Shown piece by piece: positions 1-56,514 of a stretch of DNA of 64,000 bases. The translations under genes were made by a program, and so were the position numbers. The notes beneath the pieces were generated by a model. That model was given only the letters and a program-made list of their open reading frames with translations. It had not been told where the DNA came from and made no database searches. The stretch spans positions 1-64,000 of IMG/VR virus record IMGVR_UViG_3300022910_000005; one strand, given 5' to 3'. Every line of letters starts with the position of its first letter. Within the stretch, counting starts at the first letter, position 1. The DNA comes from a virus.

Positions 1-292
1 GTCCTACGCGCGGGGGCGGCGCGGGGGCACCCCCCTGGGTGCGCGCGGCGCGAGCGAGGCCGACACGCCCGACCGCGTTGTGGGGCTGACCTGCGGAAAC
101 GAGGGTCGGACTTGACAGTACGCCCCGGCTTGAGGCAGAGTGGTCCTCAGCACCACAGCGAGGCACGCAGAGCGAGCACACGCTGAGGTGGGCAGCACCC
201 CCGTAGTGCAGGGGGCAGCACGGGCCTCGCCCCTCTGCTACCCCCTCCACAGGGCGCACCACATGCACCCCCTGCACCACAGCACCCCCCGC

Positions 293-321
293 TTGACAAG
301 CGGGTGACAAGGCAGTAGCGT
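293..321 (+). promoter_or_regulatory. sigma70/HrdB-type promoter TTGACA-N17-TAGCGT
   Basis: TTGACA 293-298, TAGCGT 316-321; member of a repeated phage promoter family. Confidence 0.8.
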
Positions 322-648
322 ACTACCCAGCACCACAGCAGCACCCCCGCCGGGAGGCGGCACGAACACCCCTGCGAGCCAGGGCCTCACGTTGATCGGC
401 ACTCCCCGTATGGACGCCCATACGGTCGGGGGGTTCCGGGCGGCGTGGGCACACCAGCCGGGCGGGGCAGAGCGCACATGCAATCGCTGACACGAGGCAT
501 CGGGACATGCGTGATCCACGGGCTGTCCGTTGGATCTCCGATAAAGCCGGGCGACCATGCGAAACGCTCAAGCACAATCCCCTTGCACCACAGGGGAGCG
601 TGCCGAGAGCCCCTCTCCACACGGAGGGTGGCCGTCGGGACGCTCCGC

Positions 649-677
649 TTGACAAGCGAGTGACAAGCCTGTAGCGT
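649..677 (+). promoter_or_regulatory. promoter TTGACA-N17-TAGCGT
   Basis: TTGACA 649-654, TAGCGT 672-677; upstream of ORF 718. Confidence 0.85.
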
Positions 678-717
678 ACTACCCAGCACGACAACGACAA
701 CGGAAGCGAGGCACACG

Positions 718-945
718 ATGGAACGTGACCTGAGCAGCACCGATGAGCGAGAGATCGCTCTGGTCAACGAGATGGTCAAGACGCCCGGCCAACAGGTCCA
801 CATCCTGATGGGCCCGTGGGCCGCAGGCAACGGCCGGACGATCCGGGCCAACGGCAACGCCGTGACGGTCTGGGTGTTCCGGGCCGGTTGCGAGGTCGAG
901 TACGACGTGTCCGATCTGGACATCGACCGGACGGCCGCGAAGTGA
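718..945 (+). CDS. hypothetical early protein
   Basis: ORF after promoter and GAGG RBS; GC3-rich codons. Confidence 0.7.
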   Translation: MERDLSSTDEREIALVNEMVKTPGQQVHILMGPWAAGNGRTIRANGNAVTVWVFRAGCEVEYDVSDLDIDRTAAK

Positions 946-1139
946 GCCGGGTCACGATCGACATCGATACGGCGCGGTGGGCAGCCGAGAGCCTGGCGAA
1001 CCACGCCATCGAAACCCAGAGCGCCTATGAGGCGCTCTGCGCCATCAGGATGTACGACGCCATCGTGAAGGCGGGCGGCAGTTCCGCCGTCAAGCACGTC
1101 CTGTCCGACCTGGCAGAACTGGCTCACGTCGATCTGTGA
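942..1139 (+). CDS. hypothetical early protein
   Basis: GTGA overlap with upstream stop. Confidence 0.65.
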   Translation: MSRVTIDIDTARWAAESLANHAIETQSAYEALCAIRMYDAIVKAGGSSAVKHVLSDLAELAHVDL

Positions 1140-1146
1140 AAGGCCC

Positions 1147-1183
1147 GGCCGGACGGCACAAGTCGTCCGGCCGTAGCATCCAA
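1147..1183 (+). repeat. ACAA-loop hairpin repeat copy 1 (others at about 1508, 2104, 2455, 2755, 4656)
   Basis: GGCCGG(A/G)CGGC-ACAA-GTCG(T/C)CCGGCC followed by GTAGCATCCAA; 6 intergenic copies. Confidence 0.9.
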
Positions 1184-1223
1184 CCGTAAGCGAGCCGCTT
1201 GGCTCACGTCGAAAGGCAACCTC

Positions 1224-1487
1224 ATGAAGCGCACTCTGTCCGCCATCGCCCTGTCCGTCGCCCTGATCGCCGGAGGAGCGACGTCGGCCCAGGCCCAGCC
1301 GCACCACGTCGACCCGGTCAAGACCTGCGAGCGGTACCTGAAGTGGGCCGACCGCAAGCACACCGAGGCTCGTGCCGACCGGGCCGTGATCGTCTGCGGC
1401 CGGACCGTGCGGACTGAGCGGCAGGCTGAGCGGCTCTACGCTTGGGCCGCTCACCAGTCGCCGTACATCCGCGACCTGATCGGCTGA
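1224..1487 (+). CDS. small secreted protein
   Basis: N-terminal signal peptide MKRTLSAIALSVALIAGGATSAQA. Confidence 0.7.
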   Translation: MKRTLSAIALSVALIAGGATSAQAQPHHVDPVKTCERYLKWADRKHTEARADRAVIVCGRTVRTERQAERLYAWAAHQSPYIRDLIG

Positions 1488-1568
1488 AAGACCGCACGTC
1501 GCTAGACGGTCCGGCTGGCACAAGCCAGCCGGGCCTAGCATCCAACCGAAAGCCCCTTCGAACGGCGC

Positions 1569-1597
1569 TTGACAAGCGCATGACAAGCCTGTAGCGT
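1569..1597 (+). promoter_or_regulatory. promoter TTGACA-N17-TAGCGT
   Basis: near-identical to the promoter at 649. Confidence 0.85.
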
Positions 1598-1627
1598 ACT
1601 ACCCAACGACAGAGAGCGAGGCACACA

Positions 1628-1867
1628 GTGAAGCGACCGGAGCACACCAGCAACGTGAACGACATCCGGCTGATTGAGAAGTACCTCAAGGCGCACCGCA
1701 AGCCGGTGTGGGTGGTCCACACCCCGCCCGAAAGCCGTCTGCTGGGTGGCTTCGCCTGCGAACTGATCGACTCGTCCGGGAACCGGATGTGGAAGGTCAA
1801 GATCGCCAACGGCGACATCCTGACCGTCGATCGGCGTGAGATCTCAATGCAGATCGGGGAGTGGTGA
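1628..1867 (+). CDS. hypothetical protein
   Basis: ORF after promoter and RBS. Confidence 0.65.
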   Translation: MKRPEHTSNVNDIRLIEKYLKAHRKPVWVVHTPPESRLLGGFACELIDSSGNRMWKVKIANGDILTVDRREISMQIGEW

Positions 1868-1869
1868 GC

Positions 1870-2097
1870 ATGGCCAACATCGAGATGCGGTTCCTGATCG
1901 GGGACCTGAGCGAGACTGCCGGAACCCGCCGGATCACCCAGCCGGACGGCGGGACGTTCGTCCTCGGCCGATCCTGCCGCGTACCGGATGAGGCGACGTC
2001 GGCACTGGCCAACGGTCTGCTGGCCGACGTCAAGGTATCGGTCAACTTCTGTAACGACGTCGTCCGGATCTGGGATGTCAAGCCCGTAGCACGCTGA
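1870..2097 (+). CDS. hypothetical protein
   Basis: in-operon ORF; start uncertain (1861-1870). Confidence 0.6.
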   Translation: MANIEMRFLIGDLSETAGTRRITQPDGGTFVLGRSCRVPDEATSALANGLLADVKVSVNFCNDVVRIWDVKPVAR

Positions 2098-2101
2098 TCG
2101 T

Positions 2102-2174
2102 CCGGCCGGGCGGCACAAGTCGTCCGGCCGTAGCATCCAAGCCGCACAACCGGAAGGGGTCCATCGTGGCCATC
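2102..2174 (+). repeat. about 73-bp direct repeat (hairpin + RBS + first 3 codons), second copy about 2453-2525
   Basis: two copies differ by one base. Confidence 0.9.
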
Positions 2175-2447
2175 CACAGCAAGAACCGCGCCATCATCCT
2201 GTCCAAGATCCAGGACCGCGACAACTTCGCGGTAGCCAGCATGTCGGGAGGCGTGTTCTGCGGAACCGGGCGACTCTCGCCCGAACTGGCGGACGAGATC
2301 AAGGCGGACAAGCCGGTCTACGTCGTCTACTCGTACGGAACGCCGATCGGCTGGGTCCTGCCCGACAACCGGGCCAAGGTGCCTACCGTGTCCTACTCGG
2401 CGACAACGTCCGCCCACCAAGGCATCGTACGCCAGGCTCTGCTCTGA
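2166..2447 (+). CDS. conserved-type phage hypothetical protein
   Basis: YVVYSYGTPIGW...YSATTSAHQ pattern recalled from phage early proteins. Confidence 0.65.
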   Translation: MAIHSKNRAIILSKIQDRDNFAVASMSGGVFCGTGRLSPELADEIKADKPVYVVYSYGTPIGWVLPDNRAKVPTVSYSATTSAHQGIVRQALL

Positions 2448-2516
2448 AACGCCCGGCCGGGCGGCACAAGTCGCCCGGCCGTAGCATCCAAGCCGCACAA
2501 CCGGAAGGGGTCCATC

Positions 2517-2747
2517 GTGGCCATCGTCGAGACAGTTACAGCCAAGATCGTCGAGAGCGAACTGCTCAAGAACTCTGCGAGTGGGGCGGCGCGCTACCGG
2601 ATCACCTTCGACGACGGGGTGACCCGAACGAGTAGCAGTGACGCATCGTGGGTATGGGGATTCGGGAATCCCGGAATGCGCAACGGCGACAAGGTGACCA
2701 TGACCTTGACCCGTGCGGGCTACATCTCGCACATGTCGCCAGCCTGA
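2517..2747 (+). CDS. hypothetical protein (paralog of 4222..4446)
   Basis: shared G..(Y/W)(R/K)(I/V)TFDD pattern. Confidence 0.65.
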   Translation: MAIVETVTAKIVESELLKNSASGAARYRITFDDGVTRTSSSDASWVWGFGNPGMRNGDKVTMTLTRAGYISHMSPA

Positions 2748-2807
2748 AACGCCCGGCCGGGCGGCACAAGTCGCCCGGCCGTAGCATCCAAGCCGCACGA
2801 ACCGCAG

Positions 2808-2836
2808 TTGACAACCGCTTGGCAAGCCTGTAGAGT
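2808..2836 (+). promoter_or_regulatory. promoter TTGACA-N17-TAGAGT, leaderless start at 2844
   Basis: ATG 7 nt after the -10; an RBS-preceded ATG at 2865 is an alternative start. Confidence 0.8.
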
Positions 2837-2843
2837 ACTACCC

Positions 2844-3524
2844 ATGACGACGACGGAGGCCACGATGACCGAGACAACACCGGCAGTGAAGCGCAAGGCG
2901 CTCTCCCTGGACGCCCTCCTGCCCAGCAAGGGCGAGATGACCGGCCGCATCCTCGCCACGTACAACGCGGCGAACGAGGACCAGATGCTCGATGGCAAGT
3001 CCTGGTACAGCACTGCGCATCACCTGGCCGTCCGGCTCGACCCTGAGTCACCGATCAGAGCGGCTGGTGTGATCGCGGCGCTCTCTCCACAGATGGACTG
3101 GGAGCGCAACATGTTCCTGGCCGAGCGGACCTACGCCGAGGGTCTGGCGTACGGATGCCTCGGGGTGTCCTGCCGTAAGGCGAACGAGATCTACAACGGC
3201 AACGGCTCCGAGGTTGACGTGATGCGGCTGCTGAACGCGCCGAAGACGCAGGCTTTCGCCGCGACCATCGCGAACCCGGACCATGAGGATGCCGTGGTGA
3301 TCGACCGGCACGCCGTGAGCATCGCTCTCGGTCGACCGTCCGACGACGCCGACGTGGCCACGCTCGGCCGGAAGGGTGCCTACGCCTACTACGCCGCTGC
3401 CTACCGGGCCGCCGCCGAGGTTGCCGGTGTGTCGCCGTCCACGATGCAGGCCGTGACCTGGGTGGTCTGGCGCGAGACGTCCATCCGCACGGCCGCCGCC
3501 GTCCGAGCGAAAGCCGGTCGCTGA
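2844..3524 (+). CDS. phage protein with HhH-GPD glycosylase-like motifs
   Basis: WY...AALSPQ..W..N, KTxAF, VVIDRHA, QAxTW motifs. Confidence 0.5.
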   Translation: MTTTEATMTETTPAVKRKALSLDALLPSKGEMTGRILATYNAANEDQMLDGKSWYSTAHHLAVRLDPESPIRAAGVIAALSPQMDWERNMFLAERTYAEGLAYGCLGVSCRKANEIYNGNGSEVDVMRLLNAPKTQAFAATIANPDHEDAVVIDRHAVSIALGRPSDDADVATLGRKGAYAYYAAAYRAAAEVAGVSPSTMQAVTWVVWRETSIRTAAAVRAKAGR

Positions 3525-3601
3525 CAGGTCGAAACGAGGGCCGGGAAACCGGCTTTCGTCCACGGGTGAGGCCCGTGCTGACGAGACCAGAGGAGAAGCA
3601 G

Positions 3602-3889
3602 ATGCCCGACAAGGTGACGTACGACGTGTTCCGCGACTGGATGAACCGGCCGGTCAAGCCGTACCGCAGTGAGGCGCTCTACCGGCCCGACCTGCGCAAG
3701 GCCATGATGGCCAAGATCGCCGCTCCGCTTCAGGTGATCCGCGAGCGTGGCGATGCGGAATGGACCGACGCGACCAAGATCCGTTACGAACAGGTCGACC
3801 CGGAGATGGGCATGGTCCGGTTCGTCGTCCGGCTGGCCGACGGCACCGAGCACACGGTGTCGGAGGACCGTGTCCGCGTCCGTCCCTGA
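3602..3889 (+). CDS. hypothetical protein
   Basis: GAGGAG RBS, ATG at 3602. Confidence 0.65.
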   Translation: MPDKVTYDVFRDWMNRPVKPYRSEALYRPDLRKAMMAKIAAPLQVIRERGDAEWTDATKIRYEQVDPEMGMVRFVVRLADGTEHTVSEDRVRVRP

Positions 3890-4179
3890 TGCCGCCGCAG
3901 TGGGAGGCCACGCTCACGCCGAAAGACGGGAGCGTGGTCAACGGCGACAAGCGCGAGATCGGCGTCGTGAGCGTCGTCCGGCTGGACAGCCCGGACGCCG
4001 ATCCGGTCAAGGTGGCCAGCCGTGAGGTTCGCGCGCTCACCTTGATCGGCCTGCGACGCAAGGCGGATCGAATCGCGAACGACCTGATTGACCGTGATCG
4101 GCGCAAGGTGAAGGCGGCCATCCAAGCCAAGATCGACCGCAAGCAAGCCGAACTTGACAAGCAGTTGTCAAGCCAGTAG
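3889..4179 (+). CDS. hypothetical protein with C-terminal coiled coil
   Basis: TGATG coupling to upstream gene. Confidence 0.6.
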   Translation: MPPQWEATLTPKDGSVVNGDKREIGVVSVVRLDSPDADPVKVASREVRALTLIGLRRKADRIANDLIDRDRRKVKAAIQAKIDRKQAELDKQLSSQ

Positions 4180-4182
4180 AGT
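4154..4182 (+). promoter_or_regulatory. promoter with operator palindrome TTGACAAGCAGTTGTCAA
   Basis: TTGACA-N17-TAGAGT. Confidence 0.85.
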
Positions 4183-4221
4183 ACTACCCATCAGCCCGAA
4201 CGAGCAGAGAGCGAGACCACG

Positions 4222-4446
4222 ATGAGCATCAAGATCGTCCGCAAGGTCGTCACCAAGGTCGAGCGCAAGAGCGCCACCCGCAACGGCCGCATCGTCTGGA
4301 AAGTCACCTTCGACGACAACACGGTGGCCACCACCAAGCCGAACTCACACTTCGGCCTGACCGTCACCCAGAACGAGCAGGGCCTGTACTCGGTCGAGTT
4401 CGACGACTACGGCCGGATCGTCGGCTGGGAGAAGGAGGAAGCCTGA
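4222..4446 (+). CDS. hypothetical protein (paralog of 2517..2747)
   Basis: ORF after promoter. Confidence 0.65.
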   Translation: MSIKIVRKVVTKVERKSATRNGRIVWKVTFDDNTVATTKPNSHFGLTVTQNEQGLYSVEFDDYGRIVGWEKEEA

Positions 4447-4698
4447 TGGCCGCCCGGGGCGAAGCGCAGGCGATGAAGGTGGACGGCGTGTTGATGCTGG
4501 TCTGCCAGTACTTCGGGGCCTGCACGAACGGCACCCTGAGCGCCTACGACCATCCGGTGCTCGGACCTGTGCCGACGTGCGTCCGCTGCGCTCGCAAGAT
4601 GCGCATCGCGAACGACCTGAAGCCGATCGAACTGGTGGTCGAGAACTGAACTGCCCAGCCGGGCGGCACAAGTCGCCCGGCTGTAGTATCCAACAGAG

Positions 4699-4727
4699 TT
4701 GACAAGCAAGTGACAAGCCTGTAGCGT
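4699..4727 (+). promoter_or_regulatory. promoter TTGACA-N17-TAGCGT
   Basis: family member directly after hairpin copy 6. Confidence 0.85.
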
Positions 4728-4750
4728 ACTACCAACGACGACGAAGGGAA

Positions 4751-5041
4751 GTGAGCATCGTGGGCAACCGGATGCGGTTCAACGCACGGGAGAAGGAACT
4801 GCTCGCCAGTGGCGTGCTGGACATCGAGGTGTCCTACGGCTCCGGCCAGTGGATCGCCTTCCGGCTCTCCAGCACCGAGACCGAGAAGTCGGTCGACGGC
4901 TACTGGCGCACCGCCGTCGGCATCATCGTCAGCGACATGAACACCAAGGGCCAGAGGTCCAAGGTGATCGGCAAGGGCTGGCAGATGCGCGGCACGCCCG
5001 GCCACATCCGCCCGGTCGGCTCCGACTGGAAGGTGACCTGA
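4751..5041 (+). CDS. hypothetical protein
   Basis: ORF after promoter. Confidence 0.6.
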   Translation: MSIVGNRMRFNAREKELLASGVLDIEVSYGSGQWIAFRLSSTETEKSVDGYWRTAVGIIVSDMNTKGQRSKVIGKGWQMRGTPGHIRPVGSDWKVT

Positions 5042-5042
5042 G

Positions 5043-5318
5043 ATGGCGCAGCAGTTCAAGATCCTCGGGCACGAGACCTGGTACGAGGTCACAGAAGTGA
5101 CCGCGCAGCAGGCGCACAACGCTGGATGCCCGACCGCGACGCACCGGATCGAAGGACCGCGCACCCACTCGCTCTACTGGGGCCGGTTCGAGTGGAACGG
5201 CAAGCGCGTCAGCAAGATCCCCGGAACGACCAACAGGCACGGCATCAAGGCCGTGTTCCACACCGAAACCCCAGGCACGGACGATGTCCGGTTGCCTGGT
5301 CACCTCACCACCGACTGA
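5043..5318 (+). CDS. hypothetical protein
   Basis: in-operon ORF. Confidence 0.6.
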   Translation: MAQQFKILGHETWYEVTEVTAQQAHNAGCPTATHRIEGPRTHSLYWGRFEWNGKRVSKIPGTTNRHGIKAVFHTETPGTDDVRLPGHLTTD

Positions 5319-5334
5319 GAAGGGAGGCACCACG

Positions 5335-6669
5335 ATGGCCAAGACGCCGTCCGACATCCAGAACGAATGCATCAAGGCGCTACGGCGCGACTTCGCGGCC
5401 GGGCTCAACCGCTTGGCCATCGTGCTGCCGACCGGCACCGGAAAGGGCTTCGTGATCGCCATGTGCGCGGCCACGTTCGCGGCCGGTAAGCGTGTGCTGG
5501 TGCTGGCCAACTCCGGCAAGTTGATGCGCCAGATCGAGGAGGACATCCGGGAACTGCTGCCGAACGCCTCGATCGGCTGGGTCAAGGCGGGCCGCAACGA
5601 GGTCAGCGCCGAGATCGTCATCGCCAGCGTGCAGTCGATGTCCGAGAAGCGCTGCCACGAGATAACCAACGTCGGGCTGGTGCTTGGCGACGAGACGCAC
5701 TACGCGGTCGCCCCGTCATGGATGCGGGTGTTCGCTCACTTCGGCTGCTTCGAGCCGGGAAGTTCTTCCACGCCGTACATCGGCTTCACGGCCACGCTGG
5801 TGCGCAACGATGAGAAGGGCATGGGTGACCTGTTCCAGAAGGTGTCGCTTCAGCGTGACCTGAAGTGGGCCATCAAGAACGGCTACGTGCTCCCCGACCG
5901 GCGGATCGACGTGGCCATGCCGACGCTCGACCTGCGGAACGTGCCGCAGGATACGGAAGGAGAGTACAACCAGGAGGTGATCGGCGCGATGCTGGCCGAT
6001 CCGTCGGCTGGCCGGTTCATCGCCCGCACGTTCAAGCACTACGCAAGGGGCAAGCGCGGGATCGTCTACGCCCCGTCCAAGAAGGCCGCTCACGCGCTCG
6101 GTGAGTTCTTCACCGAAGCCGGGATCACGAACGCGGTGATCACCGGGGACATGCCGGAGGACGAGCGGGAGGAGATCTACGCCGCAGCACGCCGAAACGA
6201 GATCCAGGCGCTGATCAACGTGGGCGTGTTGATCGCCGGGTTCGACGATCAGGGCATCTGGCTGGTCCTGGTGGCGACGATGACGAAGGCGCAGAGTCGC
6301 CTGACGCAGATCGCTGGCCGGGCCATGCGGATCGACCGCAGCGACCCGACGAAGACCGAGGGCCTGGTCGTCGTGATGCAGGGCGTCGAGGCCGAGATCG
6401 CCACGATCGTCGACCTGAAGCGAACCGGCGCAAAGAAGCCGACCCGGACGGCGTCCGCCAAGCGGGCCAGTCTGGCGAAGATCCCGGCCAGGATGCTGGA
6501 CGGCCAGTACAAGGCGCGGCGTGACGGTGGCTACCTGGTGGTGACCCGGCTGCATCCAGACCCGATGGAGATCTACCGCGTGCCAATGCCAACGAAGGGA
6601 GGCGAAGAGATCGCCGCGAAGGTGATCCGGCTGGACCAACTCCAGCGCAACAAGGCCAAGAAGCGTTGA
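5335..6669 (+). CDS. SF2 DExH-box helicase
   Basis: LPTGTGKG (Walker A), DETH, TAT, GFD, QIAGRAMR motifs; GGAGG RBS. Confidence 0.92.
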   Translation: MAKTPSDIQNECIKALRRDFAAGLNRLAIVLPTGTGKGFVIAMCAATFAAGKRVLVLANSGKLMRQIEEDIRELLPNASIGWVKAGRNEVSAEIVIASVQSMSEKRCHEITNVGLVLGDETHYAVAPSWMRVFAHFGCFEPGSSSTPYIGFTATLVRNDEKGMGDLFQKVSLQRDLKWAIKNGYVLPDRRIDVAMPTLDLRNVPQDTEGEYNQEVIGAMLADPSAGRFIARTFKHYARGKRGIVYAPSKKAAHALGEFFTEAGITNAVITGDMPEDEREEIYAAARRNEIQALINVGVLIAGFDDQGIWLVLVATMTKAQSRLTQIAGRAMRIDRSDPTKTEGLVVVMQGVEAEIATIVDLKRTGAKKPTRTASAKRASLAKIPARMLDGQYKARRDGGYLVVTRLHPDPMEIYRVPMPTKGGEEIAAKVIRLDQLQRNKAKKR

Positions 6670-6694
6670 CAACCGCCTGACAAGAGAGTAGAGT
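6666..6694 (+). promoter_or_regulatory. promoter TTGACA-N17-TAGAGT, leaderless start at 6702
   Basis: ATG 7 nt after the -10, no RBS. Confidence 0.8.
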
Positions 6695-7195: not shown

Positions 7196-7431
7196 CGTAC
7201 GACGAGTTCCAGTACCACACGCCCGCCGCGAAGGCGGGCACCCTGTTCATCCGCGCCCTGCCGGACGACGAACTGAAGCAGGCAATGGATCAAGGCACGC
7301 CTGCCTACAACAAGGTGATGGCGATGCTCGGTCCGGACACGAACCCGTTCTGGATCACCTCGCTGGCCGCCGAGACGGCCTACTTCCGAAACCTCATCAG
7401 CGAGAAAGAGTTCGACTGGAGGACCGAGTGA
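7192..7431 (+). CDS. hypothetical protein
   Basis: ATGA overlap. Confidence 0.6.
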   Translation: MTYDEFQYHTPAAKAGTLFIRALPDDELKQAMDQGTPAYNKVMAMLGPDTNPFWITSLAAETAYFRNLISEKEFDWRTE

Positions 7432-7776
7432 CCAACCGATTCGGGATCGACGACGAGCACCTGCCGGACCTGCGGGACGTGCAAGGCGGCCGACCGGCCC
7501 CGGAACCGTCGTTCGCCCGTCGCGTCTGGGACGCGAAGACGGACCCGTGGGCACCGCAGTACGACCCGGCGTGGGTCGGGACGGAGCCTCCGTCGTGAGC
7601 GGCGAACGGCGAACGATCTACTGGTACCGGGGCGTCGCGTACGCAGCCGACGGCACCGCGCTCGGCTGGATGAGCCTGAGTGAGGCGGCGATGCTGACCG
7701 CAGCGGCCGGTGACCGGGCAGGCGACATGGCGTTCGTGCGGATCGGCCTGCCGCCTACCTGACGGAAGTACCTGAG

Positions 7777-7810
7777 AGCCCGGCCAGCAGACTCTGCTGG
7801 CCGGGCTTTT
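7777..7810. terminator. intrinsic terminator between convergent operons
   Basis: AGCCCGGCCAGCAG-ACT-CTGCTGGCCGGGCT followed by TTT. Confidence 0.85.
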
Positions 7811-8513: not shown

Positions 8514-9006
8514 TCTTCACCGCCTTGTCCAACTGGCTCCAATTGCAATTCATGACCAGGCGGCGATTCTTCAGGATCATCCCGGAATCCCATCCGTTCT
8601 TCACCCAATGCCCGACGTACGTCATGTCGCCGTGCTGAATGACGACCCGGACGGAATCCACGGGGCCGACCCGTTCGCTGCCGACCTGTTTACGAGCAGC
8701 CTTTCCAGTGGGCGTCTCCTCGCCGGTCGGTTCCATGATCGCAACGCTCAACGGAAGCCCGGTCGACGGAGTGATGTCCTCACCGACGGCGTGCGTGATC
8801 CGAACGTTCGCGCGCATCTCGATCCCCAACGTTGCGAGACGGCGAGCGTTGGGCGGAACGATCGGAGCGTGGGCCGTCACCTCGATCGCTCGCTGCACCG
8901 GCTCCGGATGAACGATCGCAACGTACGTCGTCTTGCCCCACGTTCGACCGTCGACCGGAACGCTCTCCAACGTTGGGTCGAGGTGAGCGTTGTGATCGTC
9001 AGCCAC
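8443..9006 (-). CDS. hypothetical protein
   Basis: GTG at 9006 overlapping upstream stop; contains AACGTT cluster. Confidence 0.6.
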   Translation of the reverse strand: MADDHNAHLDPTLESVPVDGRTWGKTTYVAIVHPEPVQRAIEVTAHAPIVPPNARRLATLGIEMRANVRITHAVGEDITPSTGLPLSVAIMEPTGEETPTGKAARKQVGSERVGPVDSVRVVIQHGDMTYVGHWVKNGWDSGMILKNRRLVMNCNWSQLDKAVKNAKSEADLRGESDGQLQMSFPGN

Positions 9007-11757: not shown

Positions 11758-11786
11758 ACGCTACAGAAGGGCGCTTGACTTGTCAA
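11758..11786 (-). promoter_or_regulatory. promoter TTGACA-N17-TAGCGT, leaderless
   Basis: TAGCGTACTACCC-ATG, same tail as the plus-strand family. Confidence 0.85.
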
Positions 11787-14000: not shown

Positions 14001-14052
14001 CTCTGCATCCAGTGAGTTGACAACTCCATGACATGCATGTAGAGTTCTGCTC

Positions 14053-17600: not shown

Positions 17601-17632
17601 AGCCCGGCCAGGCAACCGCCCGGCCGGGCTTC
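17601..17632 (+). terminator. GCCCGGCC-stem terminator, identical to 56483-56514
   Basis: AGCCCGGCCAGGCAACCGCCCGGCCGGGCTTC. Confidence 0.85.
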
Positions 17633-20699: not shown

Positions 20700-20765
20700 A
20701 AGCCCGGCCAGCCCCGCCGCTGGCCGGGCTTTCGTTTGACAGGCGCATGACAAGGGTAGTAATGT
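20700..20765 (+). terminator. GCCCGGCC terminator followed by TTGACA promoter
   Basis: AAGCCCGGCCAGC...GCTGGCCGGGCTTT then TTGACA at 20736. Confidence 0.75.
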
Positions 20766-21081: not shown

Positions 21082-21468
21082 TGGCCGCCGACCGCCGCAA
21101 GGACACCAGCGAGGCGCTGACCGAGATCCGCACGGTGCACAGCCGCGCCTGGTCGGCGCTCGATCGGCTGGCCATGAACAACGGCCTGAGCGAGACGCGC
21201 CGGATCGAAGCGTCGTACGACGAGGACGGCGAGTACGTCCCGCCCAGCATCGAGAACTACCGCGACCCGGACGCCGACGAGATGGTGGCTGCCCTGGAGG
21301 CTTTCGTGGCCGCCACCGCCAAGTGGGCGAACCGCAAGCGTAAGGGGCTCTGATGGATCACTGGTACTGGGCCGGTGGATTTCAGGTCGCCGTCTGGGGA
21401 ACGCTCATCCTCCAGGTCGCCACGGGCATCGTCCGTAGCATCGTCAGGGCGGCGAAGGAGGGCAAGAA

Positions 21469-48743: not shown

Positions 48744-48811
48744 GCCCGCCACCTCGTAGTAAGAGGTGGCGGGCTTCTGCGTTGACAAGCGGTTGTCAAG
48801 TCTGTTACCTT
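48744..48811 (+). promoter_or_regulatory. terminator followed by the operator-promoter of the transfer operon
   Basis: GCCCGCCACCTC...GAGGTGGCGGGC then TTGACAAGCGGTTGTCAA at 48782. Confidence 0.8.
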
Positions 48812-56473: not shown

Positions 56474-56482
56474 GCAGCGAAA

Positions 56483-56514
56483 AGCCCGGCCAGGCAACCG
56501 CCCGGCCGGGCTTC
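56483..56514. terminator. terminator between the transfer operon and the lysis genes
   Basis: identical to 17601-17632. Confidence 0.85.

Follow-up and report, generated by a model that had tools for sequence, protein, structure and literature searches.

Repeated ACAA-loop RNA hairpins behind the early genes of an uncultivated actinophage-like virus: candidate leaky punctuation marks in recombining cassettes

The IMG/VR virus record IMGVR_UViG_3300022910_000005 (G000 below) carries at its early end six copies of one RNA hairpin with an ACAA loop. The record is 80,684 bp long, with a CheckV completeness of 100%; bases 1–64000 of it are called the window here. Each hairpin stands shortly after the stop codon of an early gene, has a stem whose bases covary, and is followed by the tail TAG(C/T)ATCCAA, which holds no U-tract. 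With moderate confidence, the hairpins are interpreted here as leaky punctuation, which would combine weak attenuation of transcription with protection of 3' ends and would operate inside recombining cassettes like the promoter-early stem-loop (PeSL) cassettes of T4-type phages.

The anatomy of the six copies, h1 to h6, is uniform. Each consists of a 12-bp stem, the 4-nt ACAA loop and the tail, and all are co-oriented with the genes. An initial annotation of this DNA had placed six elements at about 1147, 1508, 2104, 2455, 2755 and 4656, each soon after a stop codon. All six are present, on the + strand (Table 1), and only the stem length given there, 11–12 bp, needs correction to 12 bp throughout. 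Stem and stop codon are separated by 6 nt in h1, h4, h5 and h6, by 5 nt in h3 and by 20 nt in h2. The repeat also includes a C-TGA-AAGGCC-type flank on the 5' side, which either provides the stop codon or comes just after it. Beyond the 12-bp helix at most two extra pairs form past a bulge, and they are kept in some copies only. The first 8 nt past each stem (UAGCAUCC) contain only 2 U, so that a U-tract is lacking, as the earlier annotation stated. The tail motif has 6 matches, all on the + strand, against 0.87 expected, and none of 100 shuffles reaches 6; the pattern of loop plus tail occurs six times forward and never in reverse across the full record. Folding energies lie between -27.5 and -31.1 kcal/mol in 61-nt windows, with z-scores of -3.0 to -5.0.

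The family so far comprises 12 copies in three uncultivated phage records. A pattern scan of IMG/VR yielded a single genuine relative, G001 (60.9 kb, 78% complete). Its early end holds five copies, among them one with an AUAA loop and two with the TAGTAACCAA tail. A covariance model built from these 11 copies (six from G000, five from G001) found one further copy in another related record, G006, where the next promoter reduces the tail to TAGCA. The same model found no copy in the complete relatives G004 and G005, nor in about 150 other loci that encode DUF7178, and G004 and G005 have no other repeated hairpin family either. Scans for loop plus tail in IMG/VR, metagenome contigs and GTDB gave almost only single chance matches (for the metagenome and GTDB pattern scans, chance matches alone among the matches listed), and a scan anchored on the tail gave 118 matches, none of them a genuine hairpin copy. 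Rfam 15 has no match to the window at gathering scores and, with E up to 1 over positions 1–6000, nothing at the hairpin elements. The motif thus matches no catalogued family, which the initial annotation had considered; two of the checks proposed there, a covariance model and an Rfam search, ended in the one extra copy and in an empty result, respectively. An intergenic hairpin of Arthrobacter phage BarretLemon (38466–38491, between gp53 and gp54) has an identical 18-nt top, GGGCGGC-ACAA-GTCGCCC, G-U pair included; its tail is different and it occurs once in that genome. It was rejected as a family member and attributed to convergence, as this stem top is common with any loop: in control scans of IMG/VR for hairpins of at least 8 bp with the stem top GGCGGC...GUCGCC, an ACAA loop was found in 15 distinct hairpins, AACA in 10 and GAAA in at least 48.

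Covariation is evidence for a conserved structure. In the alignment of the 12 copies, 98.5% of the 132 pair cells form standard pairs, both partners differ between copies in 7 of the 12 pairs, and 13 further pair types are seen. No column shuffle out of 500 attains the observed value by any measure, and sliding the 3' partner lowers pairing to 15–58%. The compensatory changes and G-U pairs quoted in the initial annotation are real in this alignment. The stem is exactly 12 bp long in 11 of the 12 copies. Its three top pairs are paired in all 12; two of them are invariant and the middle one is G-U (G-C in two copies), and this G-U, adjacent to the pair that closes the loop, persists in 9 of the 11 distinct copies. 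The fold is also strand-specific. Because of the G-U wobble pairs, the sense hairpin is 3.9–8.4 kcal/mol more stable than its complement in every one of the 12 copies, and the covariance model scores 63–77 bits on the + strand against 15–18 bits on the - strand. The wobble pairs and the strand-biased scores therefore point to an RNA structure of the sense strand and not to a DNA palindrome read by a protein, while a structure of + strand single-stranded DNA (ssDNA) appears less likely. The earlier proposal of a conserved structured RNA element is supported on each of these counts. Conservation between phages agrees with it: nucleotide identity between G000 and G001 is 83–93% in the hairpin elements, 77–87% in promoters and 68–77% in coding flanks, and the commonest type of G000 differs from the types of G001 at 3–5 of 38 positions.

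The same data make a site acting at the DNA level, such as a repressor operator or stoperator, a recombination site or an ssDNA replication hairpin, very improbable. Although the element is a repeated palindrome in intergenic DNA, comparable to the conserved inverted repeat (CIR) operators of phage phiC31, and although breakpoints of relatives coincide with it, its arms vary freely while pairing persists. A dimer that reads the sequence would not tolerate this, and pairing kept while the sequence is free therefore argues against an operator. In addition, the G-T positions spoil the palindrome as DNA, and the fold belongs to one strand. The phiC31 CIRs are perfect palindromes of invariant sequence, whereas here 8 of the 12 pairs vary, 7 of them on both sides.

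What the RNA may do is suggested by where the copies stand. A promoter of one recurrent class (see below) lies within 6–33 nt downstream of h2, h5 and h6, and none follows h1, h3 and h4. Since the latter three precede genes without promoters, read-through is needed for genes 1224–1487, 2166–2447 and 2517–2747. The lack of a U-tract and obligatory read-through at three copies together make a leaky mark likelier than an efficient terminator. One intercistronic cassette of about 55 nt, present in six copies and composed of the C-UGA-AAGGCC flank, the ACAA hairpin and the UAGCAUCCAA tail, continues either with a sigma70-type promoter or with a leader, ribosome-binding site (RBS) and start codon. 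In the proposed model it would act as RNA, in the sense strand of early transcripts. The hairpin would fold directly downstream of a small early gene's stop codon, mark the 3' boundary of the cistron and attenuate transcription weakly. Its main role would be to block 3'-to-5' exonucleases, leaving upstream cistrons with a stable hairpin end. Such protected ends may arise when transcription occasionally terminates or when the single-stranded tail is cut. Cleavage of the tail would be a secondary and less certain step, for which the fit of the tail to an RNase E preference, described below, is weak evidence. In evolution, the cassettes would stay alike while the genes between them are shuffled through recombination among copies.

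The hairpin ends would fall into the "highly structured, U-lacking" class of 3' ends of Streptomyces. In Streptomyces clavuligerus, Term-seq found 353 of 535 highly structured 3' ends to be without U and 182 with U, and those without U were interpreted either as I-shaped terminators or as what remains of Rho-terminated RNAs after trimming (PMC8269248). Recombinant mycobacterial RNA polymerase requires a U-tract, and the authors of that study propose that hairpins lacking one behind genes could stabilise RNAs or define 3' ends made by processing or exonuclease trimming (PMC3993855).

A rival account is that the hairpins are plain factor-independent terminators without a U-tract, of the "I-shaped" kind or the kind of the phiC31 early region. 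Any stable GC hairpin would then serve, and the constant loop and tail would merely trace recent copying or gene conversion among cassettes. We consider this account somewhat unlikely, even though several observations are compatible with it. The anatomy, a stable hairpin without poly-U, agrees with the I-shaped and phiC31 early type, and the phiC31 hairpins, which reportedly terminate without poly-U, are a precedent. The constancy of loop and tail is statistically inseparable from the variation of the stem: in the 11 copies of G000 and G001, 7 of 12 stem pairs vary against 3 of 14 columns of loop plus tail (Fisher p = 0.11), and adding the G006 copy gives 8 of 12 against 6 of 14 (p = 0.27). 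The loop and tail described initially as invariant are confirmed for the six copies of G000; the statistics lend no significant support to a special constraint on them, and the tail of G006 is only TAGCA. Most of the tail is lost in that copy, one G001 copy has exchanged ACAA for AUAA, the complete relatives G004 and G005 manage without the element, and G006 relies mainly on a different repeated hairpin with varying loops. The top GGCGGC-ACAA-GUCGCC also recurs in unrelated phage hairpins, at the frequencies given above. However, an efficient stop at h1, h3 and h4 would silence the promoter-less genes downstream, operon ends of the same genome are served by U-run hairpins, recombinant mycobacterial RNA polymerase fails to terminate without a U-tract (PMC3993855), and the element is better conserved than the neighbouring genes.

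A sequence-specific site for processing or binding would explain the constant parts differently. An endoribonuclease (RNase III, or RNase E in the tail) or an RNA-binding protein, of host or phage, would recognise the UAGCAUCCAA tail and the ACAA loop with its C-G and G-U closing pairs, and the early polycistronic RNA would be cut into single-gene pieces or marked. This is quite unlikely in our judgement. It would account for the intercistronic placement within operons, the unbroken pairing and frequent G-U at the top of the stem, the stem length of 12 bp in all copies but one, and the TAG.A core of the tail, which is found in 12 of 12 copies. Mycobacterial RNase E prefers RR|CNU (PMC10641625), and the start of the tail, UAG|CAU, fits this preference, which is weak evidence as the motif is short. 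For RNase III, on the other hand, the stem is short, and an internal loop like that of the T7 sites is absent. Of the T7-like RNase III site suggested initially, the intercistronic position therefore stands; the anatomy, a 12-bp helix in place of some 20 bp interrupted by an internal loop, does not fit. Conservation of loop and tail is statistically inseparable from descent. No partner protein offers itself as a candidate; PHROG scans of ten early proteins gave no informative match, and phyletic profiling is uninformative, G000 and G001 sharing most genes.

The conserved A-rich hairpin loop within the early region could also suggest nut-like antitermination, or translational control by an early phage protein that binds the hairpin as an operator; either is highly improbable. 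The ACAA loop may loosely resemble the GACAA loop of P22 boxB. The copies stand after genes and ahead of promoters and not in promoter-proximal leaders, which speaks against the antitermination site named in the initial annotation. A lambdoid nut site (boxA plus boxB) was rejected as well, given the 12-bp stem, the 4-nt loop, the position after genes and flanks that share nothing like boxA. As to an operator, the hairpin lies 30–50 nt upstream of the next start codon and leaves the RBS unoccluded. Six copies per genome count against both functions.

Recombination among cassettes is suggested by gene arrangements. After h3 and h4, the same leader, RBS and first codons front two unrelated genes. 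Gene order differs between G000 and G001, and genes of one family are found behind hairpins at different places in the two. Metagenome relatives appear to break at the element. In one relative from a soil metagenome the gene at 945–1139 is missing, with the junction at 1143, and in a second it is replaced, with the junction at 1145, both just before h1. A third metagenome contig joins the tail of h2 (1545) straight to the sequence that follows h5; the run shared by h2 and h5 at this junction is only 10 nt, too short for a k-mer assembly artefact.

Several points weigh against the leaky punctuation hairpin in recombining cassettes. The metagenome junctions rest on short contigs aligned at 80% likeness. 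The 12 copies come from 3 records only, and shared descent inflates the counts. The higher identity of the elements reflects either purifying selection or recent exchange between phages. The RNase E motif in the tail is gone in the TAGTA variants (h6 and two G001 copies). RNA sequencing runs were searched for the virus DNA, and none is listed as containing it. An actinomycete host is itself inferred, from 66% GC, the TTGACA-17-TAG(A/C)GT promoters and DUF7178 relatives that are mostly from actinophages. Finally, Ingham, Hunter and Smith (1995, NAR 23:370, cited in PMC3993855) are reported to have found termination at phiC31 early hairpins without poly-U, and true termination may therefore occur at the present hairpins as well.

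Table 1. Hairpin cassettes, class promoters and the contrasting hairpin, in window coordinates
Feature	Coordinates	Strand	Stop codon	Stem-loop	Tail	Remarks
Cassette h1	1137..1183	+	TGA 1137-1139	1146-1173 (ACAA 1158-1161)	1174-1183	Inside operon; next gene 1224-1487 without own promoter
Cassette h2	1485..1545	+	TGA 1485-1487	1508-1535	1536-1545	Most diverged copy; promoter at 1569 downstream
Cassette h3	2095..2140	+	TGA 2095-2097	2103-2130 (two G-U pairs)	2131-2140	Then shared leader, RBS and start codon for gene 2166-2447; promoter absent
Cassette h4	2445..2491	+	TGA 2445-2447	2454-2481	2482-2491	Then same leader, RBS and start as after h3, for gene 2517-2747; promoter absent
Cassette h5	2745..2791	+	TGA 2745-2747	2754-2781 (sequence as in h4)	2782-2791	Promoter at 2808 downstream
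Cassette h6	4647..4693	+	TGA 4647-4649	4656-4683 (pair 2 A-U instead of G-C)	TAGTATCCAA 4684-4693	Promoter at 4699 directly downstream
Class promoter	293-321	+
Class promoter	649-677	+
Class promoter	1569..1597	+				TTGACA-17-TAGCGT; downstream of h2
Class promoter	2808..2836	+				Downstream of h5; drives DUF7178 gene
Class promoter	4154-4182	+
Class promoter	4699..4727	+				Begins 6 nt past h6 tail
Class promoter	6666-6694	+
Class promoter	14017-14045	+
Class promoter	11758-11786	-
Contrast hairpin	7774..7810	.		14-17-bp stem		A and T run flanks; end of early rightward block

The promoters belong to one sigma70-type class, TTGACA-17-TAG(C/A)GT, with 9 matches in the window against 0.06 expected; the class agrees with the Streptomyces-type vegetative consensus. 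Promoters of this class drive the left 7.8 kb, a rightward block of small genes, and their spacing in the early region is one promoter per 0.5–1.5 kb or so. In most of the nine copies the spacer holds a second, internal "TGACAAG" box, perhaps an operator-like direct repeat. The mRNA of the DUF7178 gene (2865–3524) is probably leaderless, with its ATG at 2844, and an in-frame ATGACGAC start lies 7 nt past the -10 box of its promoter (window 2831–2846). The leaderless arrangement is kept in G001 (about 7140–7125, - strand), and in G006 many promoters run straight into ATGACGACGAC (several sites, such as 5450–5470). Between the first two promoters, about 320 nt (322–648) contain no convincing gene, only weak open reading frames at 445–663 and 507–674; this segment, at the genome end, may be transcribed from the promoter as a non-coding leader RNA.

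Hairpins of another type are found in the same genome. Those with A and T runs stand where blocks end or converge (7774–7810, 20700–20731, 48744–48774, 56514–56481 and 42984–42942), and the ACAA hairpins therefore form a distinct U-less class. The hairpin at 7774–7810 looks like a canonical bidirectional terminator, so the phage appears to use U-tract hairpins as well. A canonical intrinsic (L-shaped) terminator has at least 3 adjacent U within a U-rich stretch of 7–9 nt, which rules out this identity for the sequence past the ACAA stems, and a simple terminator scan of the phage reported 0 of the 6. Four canonical-looking terminators, at 7774–7810, 17601–17630 (-), 20700–20731 and 56481–56514 (-), have a common stem core GCCCGGCC(A/G)G set between A and T flanks, and those at 17630 and 56514 (- strand) are near-identical. 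At 3527–3596 there is a weak match to Hammerhead_II (22.4 bits where the gathering score is 37; E = 0.43), which overlaps a GAAA-loop hairpin after the DUF7178 gene and is most likely due to chance. G006 mostly uses its other repeated hairpin family, with four copies after early genes (5845–5873, 7242–7273, 7730–7758 and 8666–8696); these have the form ATGCCCCCGCC...GGCGGGGGCAT and a T-richer tail, and their stems are constant while their loops vary, the reverse of the ACAA family.

Other features touch the cassette itself. A second small hairpin with a GCUU loop lies at 1190–1210, between the tail of the h1 type and the next RBS. It is kept in G001 (about 6375–6355 and 5050–5030, - strand), with the third pair changed from G-C to C-G. 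No complementary copy of the tail with which it could pair was found in the window on either strand. The TAGCAT of the tail was rejected as a promoter -10 box, since no acceptable -35 box lies at 16–18 nt. A mimic of the tRNA top half (a t-element-like minihelix for RNase P or RNase Z) fits in its 12-bp length; it was rejected because the loop has 4 nt and is not a 7-nt T-loop, and because the CCA stands 6 nt past the stem and not 1 nt.

The virus has a GC content of about 66%, and no tRNA genes were found in its DNA. The genes next to the hairpins encode products of 64–95 aa with no recognised function. Positions 1–6000 gave zero DNA matches by megablast and blastn in phage and plasmid collections. 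The relatives of the DUF7178 protein are chiefly in Streptomyces, Mycobacterium and Gordonia phages, at 45% identity or less; closer ones exist (P0002–P0005), at 77–79% identity, within a set (P0002–P0013) encoded on metagenome contigs that spans 60–79%. A leaf-litter metagenome DNA run contains 98% of the sampled words of the virus, and runs from soil and rhizosphere metagenomes contain parts of its relatives.

Hairpin and promoter cassettes that regulate and shuffle small early genes are documented mainly in T4-type phages, and a comparable U-less system in an actinophage-like virus would carry the cassette idea to high-GC hosts. The phage would also offer a compact natural test case of whether U-less hairpins after actinobacterial genes are terminators or protectors of 3' ends, and both hairpin classes in one genome make a clean comparison possible. 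The cassettes are candidate insulator or stabiliser parts for expression in Streptomyces. Specific recognition of the loop and the UAGCAUCCAA tail, if true, would be a new sequence-defined signal for mRNA punctuation in phages of high-GC bacteria.

Among known systems, the early RNase III sites of T7 (R0.3 to R1.3) are irregular helices of about 20 bp with an internal loop, and T7 has few promoters. After the RNase III cut the hairpin remains at the 3' end and stabilises the upstream message. The present family resembles them in that its related hairpins also separate cistrons of one polycistronic early transcript. In contrast, the present helix has 12 bp, perfect or G-U-containing, in place of two irregular turns with an internal loop, and a promoter follows every 0.5–1.5 kb or so; by anatomy the hairpins do not fit RNase III sites of the T7 type. 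The repetitive extragenic palindromic (REP) sequences and bacterial interspersed mosaic elements (BIMEs) of enterobacteria are likewise repeated extragenic palindromes after stop codons, inside operons and without a U-tract. REP-type palindromes are thought to block 3' exonucleases and thereby stabilise upstream mRNA (discussed in PMC3993855). They are chromosomal, have hundreds of copies and are linked to RAYT transposases, whereas here six copies lie in a phage early region without a RAYT-type enzyme. The phiC31 early region and the highly structured, U-lacking ends of Streptomyces share GC-rich hairpins without a U-tract, which in phiC31 stand between early genes of a phage with a high-GC Gram-positive host. 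The phiC31 early intergenic hairpins differ from one another and have no U runs (for example, 21343–21377). Unlike the present ones, they are not one covarying family with a shared loop and tail, and the repeated element of these intergenic regions is the sequence-invariant CIR palindrome, a repressor operator and thus a DNA site.

The closest parallel is found in the PeSL cassettes of T4-type myoviruses (Arbiol et al. 2010, PMC2839356; Comeau et al. 2014, PMC4122927). A PeSL unit starts with the upstream stop codon and ends with the Shine-Dalgarno (SD) sequence and start codon (PMC2839356); terminator activity and mini-circle formation have been shown for PeSLs (PMC2839356, PMC4122927) and would be at most putative in the present family. 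The present virus is not a T4-like myovirus, as is clear from its 66% GC, from DUF7178 relatives mostly in Streptomyces, Mycobacterium and Gordonia phages and from the lack of any DNA match in deposited phages. It represents an unrelated lineage and host type, high-GC and actinophage-like. A promoter follows only 3 of its 6 copies, the hairpin is always upstream of the promoter and never overlaps it, and the hairpin is fixed at 12 bp with a fixed loop, outside any U-rich or AT-rich context. The two systems nevertheless have much in common. Each is a composite intergenic unit repeated between small early genes that have no assigned function. Each begins at a stop codon, continues with a stem-loop that contains G-T pairs and, here in three of the six copies, with a sigma70-type promoter, and ends at an SD sequence and start codon. 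The TGA of the repeated flank, together with the leader, RBS and opening codons common to the sequences behind h3 and h4, shows this extent in the present virus. PeSL copies stand at the edges of insertions, deletions and replacements, and the short contigs mentioned above suggest the same for the present ones; in both systems the hairpin has been proposed to be a terminator or attenuator. By analogy, the ACAA family is best read as a lineage-specific form, high in GC and without a U-tract, of the terminator/promoter cassettes described for T4-type phages.

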